Source: Octopus vulgaris (Eukaryota). From it: a stretch of DNA of 64,000 nt. The translations under genes and the position numbers were made by a program. Positions 15,641 through 35,409 of this stretch are shown here, in pieces. Location: assembly GCA_951406725.2 (NCBI GenBank), contig OX597820.1, positions 24,614,001 to 24,678,000 of the forward strand, read 5' to 3'. Each line of letters starts with the position of its first letter. Position 1 is the stretch's first letter. The notes below the pieces were generated by a model. The model was given only the letters and a program-made list of their open reading frames with translations, did not search any database and was not told the DNA's origin.

Positions 15641-16787
15641 AGTTTCTTTATTGGCCACACAGGGCTGCACACAGATGGGACAAATTACAAGGTAGAGCTT
15701 TTATTTTGTGGGATGAAAAAAAAACAAAAAACAAAAGAAACAAAAAAAAAGTGGCGTAGGTTTTCGATCAAAAGGGATCGTAAAAGGGGAACAAGGAAAA
15801 AAAAAGAAAGAAAAGAAAAAAAGGGAAAAAAGGTAAAGAAAAAGAAAAAAGGAAGAAAAAAGAGGAAAAAAGGGGAGAGGAAAAAAACGATCAATAGGAA
15901 TCGTGATCACAGTGTCATGATGTACGGTGTAAAGGGGAAAGCAGATAAGGTTTATCCGTGGGAAGAAAAGCCTACGAAAAAGACCACGGTAACCTTGGTC
16001 AATATTGTTATATGTTACCACATTTATTTGCAAGTGGATAACCCTCTGTTTTCAATTTCTGGGCTCATATGATTATGCTCAAGGTGGCTTCGTCATTCAT
16101 ACATGCCATCCTTGCTACATTCACCCATCTTTTTTTAAAACATTCGCTAGACAAAACTTGCCTCTCTACTCTAACTTTCCTTTTCAAGTGGTGCTTGAGG
16201 AAGTTGATGAGAGATTGACCAGAGAGGAAAGTGTTTGTCTCAAATCCTTTCAGACGCGTCCACCAGATACATTCCTTCGCCATAGCCACAAGGATGATGA
16301 AAATAGCTCTTCCTTCCCGTTTGAAGGAAGGAGGCGTGACAATATTGACGATAGACTCAGCTGATAAACCGACTCGACCCACACGTGACAGCAGTTGTTC
16401 GACATAAGCCCACAGGTCGGAAATTGTTGGACACTGCACGAGTGCGTGCAGAACGGTTTCGTCGCTCTGACCGCATCTCGGGCAGGTCGGCCCCGTGTTT
16501 CTCGAGCTGTGTCTGTAGAGCTTATCCCGAACGGGTAGCGCTTTTCGGTAGCACTGCCAGACCAGGGATCTCTGGAAGTTGTCCATGGGCCCTAGCCCGA
16601 AAGTCGTCCCGAACAGGTGGGTTAGGCATTCCTCGTCGACGTCCAGGTTCGCCCCGAGCTCGTCGTCGTAACTCCCCTCCACTAATCCCCTCTAGAATGC
16701 TTTGGTTGTGATGGAGTCACTCAAGGTCGACCCAGGACGGCAGAGTTGCTTGAGAGCAACGCGACACTCGCGGTGCCATTCGCCCTT
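15641..16787 (-). mobile_element. 5'-truncated Tx1/L1-like LINE inserted in (GATA)n
   Basis: ORF2 C-terminus + T-rich 3' UTR ending aataaagaaact; (GATA)n on both flanks. Confidence 0.88.
16065..16787 (-). pseudogene. LINE ORF2 C-terminal zinc-binding (zf-RVT-like) region
   Basis: WQCYRKALPVRDKL...CPRCGQSDETVLHALVQCP..LW (CCHC); one in-frame TAG at 16692-16694; truncated upstream. Confidence 0.88.
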
Positions 16788-27925: not shown

Positions 27926-28339
27926 ATGTTAGCTAATAACAATAATAATAATAATGCCATATCACTGCTAGTTTGGCTGCTTTGTATGTGGACCACAACA
28001 GGGTTCGCTACGAACGCTGCATTAGACTATGACCAAATTCACATCCTTGGCCTCTGCGACCCGGACATTTACAAAGATTGCGTCGACGCCTTCACCAACT
28101 TTTTACCCAACAGAGACAACGTAGGACCTTTTGAGACGTTTTATTATAATTGGTCGGTGATTAAGGCCAAAAAGGATTTCGCTACAGGACTACGAGAGAT
28201 GGACGGTGTGTGCAGCAAATATACATACCACGTGATGGTAGCTTTCGGTTTAACACCGACAATGATGACAGCAGCGCTTACAGCTGACACGTTCAACATA
28301 ACGCTTTTGGCTTATGACACGACGCCTGGACACATTTTG
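27926..28339 (+). CDS. First coding exon of a membrane receptor: signal peptide + start of ATD/Venus-flytrap-like ectodomain, probably NMDA-type/ionotropic glutamate receptor family
   Basis: Non-repetitive 138-codon ORF; hydrophobic leader AISLLVWLLCMWTTTGFA; beta/alpha pattern IHILGL...DFATGLREMDGVCSKYTYHVMVAFG...ALTADTFNITLLAY parallels the GluN ATD; acceptor tttcag| at 27878 and phase-0 donor |gtgagt at 28340. The exon call is firm, the family call is by eye. Confidence 0.75.
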
Positions 28340-28373
28340 GTGAGTAATTGACTTTATTCTGATTTTTATTATC

Positions 28374-31990: not shown

Positions 31991-32817
31991 GCAATTTTGA
32001 ATACATACACAATTTAAAGCAATTTGAACCCACGAGGGCAGTAACGCCAGAATTTCAGGCATCATTAAATTTCTCTCACTCTTCTTCTTCTTCTTCTTCT
32101 TCTTCTTCTTCTTCTTCTTCTTCTCCATTCGCTATTTCCATATTTCCCCCCGCCCCGCTACTTTTATCCCCGTTCCGTTACCATAGCCTACACTCTCACC
32201 AAACCAGAGAGTCTCCCTCTTTGATAACTGATCAAATCTAGAATACCCTTTAGAAATTCTTCGTGTCTGTTTAATCTTTACCAGTCACTCTTGAACAACT
32301 CATTTCCATTCGAAGTGTCATTTTTCACAACACTGTGGCACTCAATAACTGTCTTCCAACTTTACGATCAATTTGTCAATTCATATGTGTCAGCATGTCC
32401 GTTATAGCTGTTAATAAATGAGAGATGACCATCTTCTTAGAAATCAAGCGAGAATAGAAATTTGAATATGAATTTAAGGAATACAACGAAGAAAATAACA
32501 GATTTCTCATTTAATTGTTTGTCTAGTATGAAGTTCTTACACTTTCTAGTTGTTGAGGACCATGTATGGTGTTATTTCATCCTTACATTTATCTACAGCA
32601 TGAATTAAACTTTAACTTATAAGCTAGATATATTACGAAGAGAAACATTTTTCAATGTGTTTTAATTGTATTTTTATCATCCTTATCTTCTCCAGTGTCA
32701 CCGAATTTCTATTTTCTCACCATCATTTTTAAAATTATTGTCATCACCCGCAAATCTGTTTATAATAAAAGTCTTAAATTTTGCTATCATTTTCATAGCT
32801 ATCATAGTTATGAACAT

Positions 32818-33160
32818 GGATCTTTACCTTTTGACCGGCAGATTTAGAAAATAATTTTTTGTAACTTAACACTTTCAAACTTCGTATAGTGGTAGAATGT
32901 GTCATATAAAACATCTATTACTCTTAACGTTTTTGAGAAAAGTTTATATTTACGAAGCTATTTCGTGTTAAAGTTGCCGTATTTCGGTAATTTCAACAAA
33001 TCAATGACGTTTATTCAGCTGAATAGAATTACTGCAACAACAACTTCCGGCGGTGTAAAAGATGTTTTATATGACACATTCTACCACTGTCCGAAGTTTG
33101 AAAATGTTTAGTTACAAAAAATTTTAATTTCTCGATCTGCCGTTCAAAGGGAAAAGATCC
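32818..33160. mobile_element. MITE with ~100-bp TIRs and 8-bp TSD (Merlin-like)
   Basis: atgaacat|GGATCTTT...AAAGATCC|atgaacat; long imperfect TIRs. Confidence 0.85.
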
Positions 33161-33741
33161 ATGAACATTACTGTTTTCACCACCTACTTCCACTGCTACT
33201 ACTTCCACTGCTCCTACTTCCACTGCTTCTACTTCCACTTCACGTTTACGGTTTGTTATTTTAGTCTCTCGTGGTCTGAGAAAGACGGTTCGGTAAATTC
33301 TTACGAAACAACAAATTCCCTGAAGAGGTGCACGGTGTCCCACATGTCAGGTGTCGAAGTTATCACAAGGCAACGTGAAATGAGGTGTTTTGCTCAAAAA
33401 CACAACGTAAAACCCGGTTCAAGAATTGAAACTGCCATGTCGGCATCGTGAATGAAACTCCTAAACCACTTAACCAATCGCCTTCAAACGTTTACAAAGT
33501 ACATAAACCAAGCACAGGTAGATCATGTCCCAATATATTTACTAGTATTCTACGAGGGTAAAAAATATTAGAAGTTATTTTAAATTATACAATACATAGG
33601 CTCAGGAGTGTGGTAAGTAGCTTGCTCACCGACTACAAGGTTCCGGGTTCAGTCACACTGTATGTCACCTTCTGTTATAGCCGCGAGCCGACCAAAGCCT
33701 TGTGAGTGGATTTGGTAGACGGACACTGAAAGAAGCCCATC

Positions 33742-33791
<50 letters not shown>

Positions 33792-34072
33792 ACAATTGAG
33801 GGTAAAATTAATTAATCAATTTCACCAAGTGTTCAGTATGTAAAAGGACCATTTAAGGCGAATTCAAAATATTACATTATATAATTAGGGCTTAGTAAAA
33901 TAAAATAAATTACTTTGCCACATACTGAACTTAGTAGAAATAGCAGCCCAAAAAAAAATTTTTTTAGTCGTTTCTACTACTTAAAGAAAATTTCTCTCAG
34001 ATAATGTTTACTCCAGACAGCTCACGAAGGTTTGGAGGTAAATACAGAAAAATATCACAAGTACATAGATCA

Positions 34073-34135
34073 TTTGAGTACGTCAACGTTTCAAGATTAG
34101 CCAAGTAAAATCAGTATTTCTTTCGTCAGCTCAAA
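34073..34135 (-). ncRNA. Type I hammerhead ribozyme (left-arm copy)
   Basis: Reverse complement of 34876-34938 with one substitution in domain II. Confidence 0.85.
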
Positions 34136-34875
34136 ATTTCTTAATTTGGATTTGGAAACACTAAAAAGAAGGAACCTTACCTATCTGCGAACTTGTCGCT
34201 TCAAATGAACCAGCTCCGACTGACAGTGCTAACAAATTCAAAATGCGCAGGCGTAAATTTCTGCACTCCTTTTCCACCCACGTGGTCTATCTAGCAAACA
34301 CTATATTTTAACCGCGAGAAGCGAGGTAGTAAGACAGAGAGAAATGAATTATAATATCAACAATTGCGGGTAAAATTAATTAATCAATTTCACCAAGTGT
34401 TCAGTATGTAAAAGGACCATTTAAGGCGAATTCAAAATATTACATTATATAATTAGGGCTTAGTAAAATAAAATAAATTACTTTGCCACATACTGAACTT
34501 AGTAGAAATAGCAGCCAAAAAAAAATTTTTTTAGTCGTTTCTACTACTTAAGCTCTAATTATATAATGTAATATTTTGAATTCGCCTTAAATGGTCCTTT
34601 TACATACTGAACACTTGGTGAAATTGATTAATTAATTTTACCCTCAATTGTTGATATTATAATTCATTTCTCTCTGTCATACTACCTCGGTTCTCGCGGT
34701 TAAAATATAGTGTTTGCTAGATAGACCACGTGGGTGGAAAAGGAGTGCAGAAATTTACGCCTGCGCATTTTGAATTTGTTAGCACTGTCAGTCGGAGCTG
34801 GTTCATTTGAAGCGACAAGTTCGCAGATAGGTAAGATTCCTTCTTTTTAGTGTTTCCAAATCCAAATTAAGAAAT

Positions 34876-34938
34876 TTTGAGCTGACGAAAGAAATGCTGA
34901 TTTTACTTGGCTAATCTTGAAACGTTGACGTACTCAAA
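34876..34938 (+). ncRNA. Type I hammerhead ribozyme, intact core
   Basis: tttgag-CTGACGA-aaga...tctt-GAAA-cgttgacg-TA-ctcaaa: all core nucleotides, three stems, GUA cleavage triplet (34930-34932). Confidence 0.88.
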
Positions 34939-35126
34939 CGATCTATGTACTTGTGATATTTTTCTGTATTTACCTCCAAACCTTCGTGAGCTGTCTGGAG
35001 TAAACATTATCTGAGAGAAATTTTCTTTAAGTAGTAGAAACGACTAAAAAAAATTTTTTTTGGCTGCTATTTCTACTAAGTTCAGTATGTGGCAAAGTAA
35101 TTTATTTTATTTTACTAAGCCCTAAT

Positions 35127-35190
<64 letters not shown>

Positions 35191-35409
35191 GTATGTATAC
35201 GTTTGTGTGTTTGTGTTTGTCCCCCAACATAGCTTGACAACCAATACTGGTGTGTTTATGTCCCGTAACTTAGCGGCTCGGCAAAAGAGACCGATAGAAT
35301 AAGCACTAGGCTTACAAAGAGTAAATCCTGGGGTCGATTTGCTCGACTAAAGGCGGTGCTCCAGCATGGCCACAGTTAAATGACTGAAACAAGTAAAAGA
35401 ATAAACCGA

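Follow-up and report, generated by a model that had tools for sequence, protein, structure and literature searches.

A 567-nt non-coding unit carrying a hammerhead ribozyme has been copied twice, head-to-head, into a (TA)n tract of the Octopus vulgaris genome, and the copies of its family elsewhere in that genome obey a nearly strict rule: in a head-to-head insertion, one arm ends at a fixed site A and the other at a fixed site B. Both arms, and the tandem units within them, derive from one donor per insertion. The unit is very probably a retrozyme mobilised by PLE machinery, and we hold with good confidence that its insertions arise from two coordinated starts of reverse transcription.

Architecture of the locus

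The window analysed is a 64,000-nt stretch of contig OX597820.1. The element and its immediate surroundings comprise the following features.

33596 to 33742, plus strand: left half of an interrupted host repeat, SINE-like
33743 to 33789: left (TA)n target tract (no strand)
33786 to 34551, minus strand: left arm, 766 nt (1.35 units), with its 5' start at circle position 479 and its 3' end at site B (circle 109)
33786 to 33875, minus strand: "tail" of 90 nt (circle 20-109) between sites A and B, at the left end only
33786 to 33978, minus strand: outer copy of a structured 3' module, with hairpin P1, a helix (33929-33921 with 33840-33832) and a hairpin at 33826-33801
34074 to 34134, minus strand: left-arm hammerhead (type I), with cleavage predicted after 34079
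34549 to 34551: head-to-head junction, a 3-nt TAA overlap
34549 to 35134, plus strand: right arm, 586 nt (1.03 units), with its 5' start at circle 1 and its 3' end at site A (circle 19)
34727 to 34739, plus strand: CACGYGGRTGGAA motif, present in four of five diverged units
34877 to 34937, plus strand: right-arm hammerhead (type I), with cleavage predicted after A34932 and a self-complementary stem III (dimer type)
35135 to 35179: right (TA)n target tract
35201 to 35400, plus strand: right half of the interrupted host repeat, SINE-like

Positions 34549-35115 (567 nt) served as the reference unit, and circle numbering starts at 34549. Read on the minus strand from 34551 to 33786, the left arm runs through circle 479 to 567, then 1 to 567, then 1 to 109; its 199-nt overlap with itself (period 568) contains one substitution and one indel. 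The right arm (34549-35134) covers circle 1 to 567 and then 1 to 19. Over one unit, the two arms differ by seven substitutions and one indel, five of the differences lying in 501 well-alignable sites. The longest stop-to-stop frame within the element is 49 aa, making it non-coding; the unit has a GC content of 0.34 and is without fixed terminal repeats or an LTR pair. The initial annotation had described this geometry (permuted ends, periods of 568 and 567, the TAA junction, no ORF) in six points, all of which we re-derived.

As a stand-in for the empty site, we used paralogs of the flank. Among 67 paralogous matches that extend to the 3' end of the left flank, 28 reach the right flank less than 300 nt further on via a short TA-rich tract, so that 33596..33742 and 35201..35400 are two halves of one repeat, presumably a SINE. 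Genome-wide, 68 of the 120 insertions examined have the head-to-head layout, and the earlier proposal of two reverse-transcription events, one from either end of a broken (TA)n, is supported.

Could the inverted arrangement be an assembly mirror or a local palindrome artefact? We saw no read or contig that spans the locus; the four public sequencing runs, consulted as contigs, gave neither joints nor start or end sites. Against such an artefact, the arms differ not only in sequence, as the initial annotation had argued and as the count per unit above confirms, but also in their start and end points; the layout recurs at 68 of 120 loci under a strict end rule; the flanks are halves of one repeat; and in the four public runs, which were labelled as two organisms, the unit is covered in 29-30 of its 30 bins. 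We give this explanation next to no credence.

Several other elements were seen in the element and around it. The CACGYGGRTGGAA motif is a possible internal promoter element, judging from its sequence. A strong splice-donor-like AG/GTAAG lies at 34829-34835 (plus strand), about 45 nt 5' of the hammerhead, and a relative at L124 has one too; introns occur in the pLTRs of PLEs. A frame at 27926-28351 (plus strand) has a signal-peptide-like start and no Pfam match; it may be a first exon, in which case the insertion would be intronic. The window also contains a 3' fragment of a LINE carrying zf-RVT (16065-16691, minus strand), a broken copy left by a Neptune-like, GC-rich PLE family that numbers 12507 candidates in the genome (62298-63200, minus strand) and a long MITE-like inverted repeat (about 32760-33170).

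The hammerhead ribozyme

Each arm contains one complete type I hammerhead, as had been annotated: at 34877-34937 on the plus strand and from 34134 to 34074 on the minus strand. The layout is a 5-bp stem I, CUGACGA, stem II, GAAA, a short stem III and GUA. Identification was based on the motif, its pairing and covariation among diverged families; an Rfam search of the window returned no hammerhead at the gathering threshold, and at E<=10 it gave microsatellite-driven noise alone. The computed energy of stem III is -12.8 kcal/mol as a dimer vs. -0.6 kcal/mol as a hairpin, and the hammerhead does not form in the minimum-free-energy fold of the monomer. Dimer-type hammerheads have been described for PLEs and amphibians (PMC4209133, PMC7229834).

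The core and stems are conserved among families that are about 56-84% identical, and the hammerhead is retained despite altered stems in four listed units. A U.U as the first pair of stem II occurs in 55 hammerheads, with one further similar case; this subfamily has spread to at least 55 copies (e.g., L061-L090). For PAc in vitro, cleavage was found to be unnecessary, and no reads ended at the cut (PMC11167929). Given that result and the spread of the U.U subfamily, hammerhead cleavage may be dispensable.

A multicopy family in AT-rich targets

The 2.8-Gb genome holds at least 355 hammerhead copies of the 567-nt family. An exact hammerhead pattern gave 298 matches (reversed control, 0), and a second pattern gave 65, of which 57 were further family members (control, 1). 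A DNA search of the genome yielded 1497 candidates, 40 of them scored. From these searches we took 30 loci from the DNA search (picked for completeness), 70 exact-pattern loci and 29 second-pattern loci (in both cases the earliest by position), and 20 of the 99 tail matches. Merging of overlaps left 123 insertions, and 120 remained once two duplicated twins and one chance match had been removed. The excluded rows are L159 (below 84% identity), three locus-edge groups, the twins L029 and L040, and L223 (a 27-nt chance match). The near-identical insertion pairs L038/L040 and L027/L029 lie 7 kb and 18 kb apart, respectively, and were probably carried by segmental duplication.

Of the 120 insertions, 68 have two arms, always head-to-head and never tail-to-tail, and 52 have one. 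Arms exceed one unit in 69 of 194 cases, the longest being 1933 nt (up to 3.4 units head-to-tail), and 28 arms traverse the cut site two or three times. The target is a (TA)n microsatellite or otherwise AT-rich, and target-site duplications are unreadable inside (TA)n. Differing PLE and retrozyme families are stacked in common (TA)n tracts at L222, L249, L134, L137, L154 and L216.

Insertions end at two fixed sites, used as a pair

We defined site A as circle 8-34 and site B as circle 103-115; the two windows are 90 nt apart and together make up 7% of the unit. Outer 3' ends fall in them in 171 of 188 cases (86 at B, 85 at A), and nearly all enter (TA)n. The 5' starts, in contrast, occupy 143 distinct positions among 180. 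Permutation is thus one-sided, with free 5' ends and two fixed 3' sites, and the mapping of ends upheld the earlier expectation of many permutations at the 5' side alone. The idea that 3' ends are freely permuted by TA microhomology found no support: words at circle 157-158 and 408 that are as TA-like as those at A and B are almost never used. Microhomology alone therefore does not choose the sites, even though A and B do match the target by 4-9 TA-like nucleotides.

Among the 68 head-to-head pairs, 55 are A+B, one is B+B and none is A+A; the remaining 12 have another end and were left unclassified. The excess of A+B over independent choice is considerable (binomial p = 8e-16). In the subset of 40 pairs selected by hammerhead pattern alone, the counts are 31 A+B, one B+B, no A+A and eight other. 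With A+B in 55 of the 56 classifiable head-to-head insertions, the two reverse-transcription events are not independent. Arm lengths within pairs are uncorrelated, and the junction overlaps between arms are mostly 1-10 nt. In 26 single-armed insertions the one arm ends at A and a B arm is absent, so that A serves as a start site by itself.

The same pairing would be expected if only one arm were reverse-transcribed and the second were a DNA fold-back copy that used site A to anneal to the opposite (TA)n end. Such a route would account for the A+B rule and for the haplotype that the arms have in common (below), and two counts lean mildly toward it: one arm is contained in the other in 37 of 52 pairs (30.5 expected, p = 0.024), and four of the 52 share a palindromic start position. 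Yet nesting is impossible in 15 of the 52 pairs, the 26 A-ended single arms have no B arm from which to fold, and the other TA-like words go unused. For PAc, moreover, two start sites are used and both strands are extended from RNA in vitro (PMC11167929). Fold-back is refuted as a general route, though it may serve a minority of insertions, and we consider it highly improbable as the explanation of the pattern. Two coordinated starts on RNA are the reading we carry forward.

A conserved 3' module around the start sites

The region that holds both sites forms a structured module. It consists of hairpin P1, of a long helix inside which a second hairpin leads into CCCT and site A, and of one more hairpin, with CCCT and site B after it. 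Six sequences from diverged families align here with 68% column identity. Pairing is kept in 92.5% of cells, and six pairs have changes on both sides; only 0-4 of 500 shuffles did as well on four of five measures, although the structure being scored had itself been built from those six sequences. Higher run depth over the module had suggested a 3' end shared with an autonomous element; this candidate was dropped, as the 20 loci picked by their tail were family copies, either short or of the usual form.

The module is common to sister retrozyme families. One of these has a 588-nt unit, 2800 candidates and copies that are 97-99% identical (L117, L233-L244); its hammerhead has a CCGAUGA core and a long stem II, and its 3' module is that of the 567-nt family. 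In 12 loci of this family, four pairs were resolved, three of them A+B and one B+B, so the rule is perhaps looser there. One insertion (L242) lies in (TATC)n. Further diverged families (about 65-85% identity) keep the module (L121, L122, L123, L124:3480-4430, L205:7518-8000, L106, L095); where their ends are resolved, A and B are used alike, and together they make up a clan of such retrozymes.

PLE proteins have been predicted to dimerise (PMC11167929). On this model, each of the two look-alike hairpins that precede CCCT and a start site might dock one protomer of a dimeric PLE protein.

One donor per insertion and the form of the template

We then asked what kind of RNA was copied. At 36 subfamily sites, tandem units are discordant in 19 of 1044 comparisons and opposite arms in 13 of 984, vs. 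24.8% for separate insertions. Two-piece arms carry the minor allele in both units 65 times out of 68. Among alleles private to one insertion, 27 are in all copies, 109 in one copy and seven in some (L073, with overlapping alignments, was omitted); the 109 are expected from later mutation and inseparable from template differences. A mutation arises in one unit, and its presence in all units would point to a monomer stage or to conversion. The shared minor alleles and the 27 all-copy private alleles thus indicate that new alleles pass through a one-unit bottleneck. A single arm at L018 contains two tandem units of unlike subfamily haplotypes (seven sites), possibly through a template switch between two RNAs or through later conversion.

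Lengths copied past the hammerhead are compatible with an exponential of mean 336 nt (n = 84, KS p = 0.33). We looked for an accumulation of 5' starts where the hammerhead would cut and found none (three vs. 2.2 expected); circle 476-483 has eight vs. 2.5 expected, uncorrected for multiple positions. Cut-site junctions are without deletion in 166 of 167 cases, a biased figure, as many loci were chosen by an intact motif, and no added bases were found in the 156 junctions read (partly selected). In circular form, the sense strand of five diverged units is predicted to fold with z-scores of -3.9 to -8.5 (antisense, -0.6). Three controls gave -1.5, -0.3 and -11.4, the last because that control (window about 32760-33170) contains a long inverted repeat.

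A circle is the simplest account of the haplotype, length, start and fold data, and we lean clearly toward a circular monomer as the template. The circular or multimeric template proposed initially is accordingly favoured by the arms longer than a unit, the shared haplotype and the lack of a cut-site pile-up; circular templates had also been put forward earlier (PMC4209133, PMC7229834).

Two linear templates have to be weighed against the circle. In the first, PLE two-site insertion would use an uncleaved multimeric transcript, the hammerhead would be dispensable, and gene conversion or unequal crossing-over would homogenise the units. Unprocessed RNA is indeed the main in vitro substrate (PMC11167929), the U.U subfamily has spread, and the mosaic arm at L018 and the seven alleles found in some copies only are what such a template could leave behind. 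However, 5' truncation shortens arrays and a mutation stays in one unit of a multimer, yet minor alleles are common to both units in nearly every two-piece arm; opposite arms share the haplotype too. Conversion should also spread later mutations, whereas 109 remain single-copy, and the hammerhead core and stems are conserved across families of about 56-84% identity. We judge the multimer unlikely.

In the second, a hammerhead-cut linear monomer would produce arms longer than a unit by end-to-end template jumps. It likewise yields a one-unit bottleneck; L018 could be a jump between two RNAs; and three outer or single arms, together with one internal piece (L044), start at circle 383-387. On the other side stand the near-chance number of starts at the cut, a length distribution without a step there and the lack of added bases at the cut in the partly selected junctions. 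This template seems to us very unlikely, and the circular monomer remains our preferred one.

Autonomous PLEs and the search for a partner

The genome has at least four autonomous families that are Neptune-like, a clade assignment suggested by our reading of the CxxC linker. One, of 4271 bp, encodes RT and GIY-YIG; it is intact, almost invariant and (TA)n-targeting, and forms partial tandems and head-to-head pairs. Its tandem unit (L195:3127-6722; G000:C1; L195-L212) occurs in copies that are 99-100% identical and is very young. We hand-picked eight inverted pairs of this family, of which six were resolved; in all six, the ends of opposite arms lie 137 nt vs. 169-170 nt past the hammerhead. 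This Neptune-like family obeys the A+B rule as the 567-nt family does. Canonical PLEs have one ORF. The 4271-bp element has overlapping frames of 454 aa and then 775 aa (RT and GIY-YIG, -1 frame), and a U UUU UUU heptamer in the overlap suggests a programmed frameshift. Its hammerhead core is CCGAAGA. A second young Neptune-like family (L245, L246, L249) has a 781-aa frame and, close to its (TA)n end, a hammerhead-like motif whose core reads UUGAUAA; promoter words resembling CCAAT/TGACGTCA recur in it.

Does any of these supply the sequence of the 567-nt unit? Searches with blastn and nhmmer of the unit and its 3' module against the GC-rich, 775-aa, 781-aa and fourth Neptune-like families gave no match, and no pLTR or 3'-end homology to the unit was found among 79 PLE loci, which represent four or more Neptune-like families. 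Apparent nhmmer matches in 73 PLE loci proved to be separate relics of sister retrozyme families. PLE relics adjoin nine insertions and were considered as partners; they belong to differing families that share TA tracts. A direct junction to an old PLE relic (L134) was a single case and was rejected.

These searches bear on whether the copies are 5'-truncated solo pseudo-LTRs of an autonomous PLE and no self-standing family. The unit is laid out like a PLE inter-ORF region (promoter-like motif, hammerhead, tail), and 120 insertions were read of up to 1497 candidates, which leaves that reading some room. Against it, the 567-nt repeats run head-to-tail for up to 3.4 units with no ORF; four PLE queries found no PLE ORF upstream in sense among 166 loci; and the nearby PLE relics are of other families. 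At the locus itself, an ORF with RT and GIY-YIG is not contiguous with the repeat. We give the solo pseudo-LTR very little credence. The PLE tail signature and the absence of an ORF instead agree with the initial proposal of a non-autonomous hammerhead element that uses PLE machinery in trans.

A model for insertion

How might such insertions be made? A genomic copy longer than one unit would be transcribed, and the self-complementary stem III, present as a motif, would pair two hammerheads and allow a 567-nt monomer to be excised. To judge by the insertion footprint, the monomer would then be ligated into a rod-like circle. A Neptune-type PLE protein acting in trans would bind the 3' module and cut both (TA)n strands. 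From the pattern of ends, one cDNA would begin at A and one at B, each on its own DNA end, and both would travel round the template, stopping at a constant rate. Joining of the cDNA ends through short microhomology would leave two arms facing each other head-to-head, only one of which carries the 90-nt tail, and extension on one side only would leave a single arm. Taken whole (circular monomer, PLE protein in trans, two coordinated starts), this is the account we favour and think likely. A narrower version, in which a dimeric PLE protein sits on the two hairpins of one circular RNA, makes a double-strand break in (TA)n and copies that circle from both DNA ends simultaneously, one protomer at A and the other at B, is a possibility that we advance tentatively, thinking it rather less likely than its alternatives.

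Relation to known systems

By its sequence, the 567-nt family is a non-LTR retrozyme and a non-autonomous PLE, a known class. On the retrozyme side we found hammerheads in each unit, dispersed tandems, non-coding sequence of low GC and a self-paired fold (one of three controls was also low); on the PLE side, variable 5' truncation, partial tandems, an inverted copy, a tail at one end and an AT-rich target. The degree of novelty first attached to the locus was overrated. The tandem, inverted and tailed layout and the (TA)n bias of PLEs had been described (PMC8557442), as had the two start sites (PMC11167929), and animal retrozymes of 51-972 bp have been argued to be non-autonomous PLE derivatives (Li, Clavereau and Pollet 2026; bioRxiv 10.64898/2026.07.22.740005).

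Animal non-LTR retrozymes (PMC7229834; the bioRxiv preprint) resemble the 567-nt family in being non-coding, low-GC (34%) tandems of type I hammerheads, with a dimer-type stem III, dispersed low-order arrays, a self-paired circle (here predicted) and PLEs in the genome. At 546-588 nt, the unit here exceeds the circles of 170-400 nt demonstrated for animal retrozymes and lies inside the preprint's range. Inverted arms, fixed 3' ends and (TA)n targeting are found here and are absent from the consulted text of the animal-retrozyme papers ("inverted" has no match in that of PMC7229834). Those retrozymes were tied to PLEs by co-occurrence and pLTR homology; ours are tied to them by the insertion footprint, with no pLTR homology found.

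With EN+ PLEs (Penelope/Poseidon, Neptune, Naiad; PMC8557442, PMC11167929, PMC4209133) the family shares 5' truncation, partial tandems, an inverted 5'-truncated copy, a tail at one end, a microsatellite bias, two internal RT starts and a hammerhead upstream of the starts. Unlike them, it has no ORF, and it has a tail of 90 nt, or about 100 nt in the sister family, where PLE tails measure 30-40. Its start sites match the target by a few TA-like nucleotides, whereas those of PAc are non-homologous (PMC11167929). The strict pairing of one A with one B and the shared haplotype, counted here, are unquantified in the passages of the PLE literature consulted. The Chlamys element MRC1 (PMC8557442) is alike in being a non-autonomous PLE derivative with pLTRs and multicopy head-to-tail insertions; elements of its type carry the 3' sequence of autonomous families and no canonical hammerhead, whereas ours has a hammerhead and no autonomous 3' match was found.

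Two other systems differ further. The plant LTR retrozyme, with a type III hammerhead in its LTRs, PBS/PPT and a 4-bp TSD, is not matched; here the hammerhead is type I and there is no LTR pair. LINE-1 twin priming also makes head-to-head insertions from two priming events joined by microhomology. In that case a single linear RNA gives rise to pieces that do not overlap, and the internal site varies; in the 567-nt family, each arm may by itself be longer than one whole unit, and the two sites are constant.

No cephalopod report of such a family turned up in the searched literature ("ribozyme" has no match in the consulted text of PMC13282606), and repeat libraries or supplements may list the unit as unknown or Penelope. 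Within the openly readable literature searched, the PLE tail on a retrozyme, the near-strict A+B rule, the single donor and the two-hairpin module appear to be new.

How PLEs make tandem, inverted and tailed insertions, and whether retrozymes use PLE protein and circles, are questions raised in earlier work (PMC8557442, PMC7229834, PMC11167929). This genome offers a short, young and multicopy template for them, one whose two starts are mapped, whose RNA module is conserved and whose ends obey a strict pairing rule. It also encodes Neptune-like proteins that are young and intact and follow that rule, so that the mechanism is testable in vitro with few constructs. If a dimer does act on one circle, a single rule would cover the tandem, inverted and tailed structures of PLEs, the mobility of retrozymes by PLE machinery would be proved, and a 567-nt circular template with its RNA module would be in hand for rolling, two-ended, microsatellite-targeted insertion.
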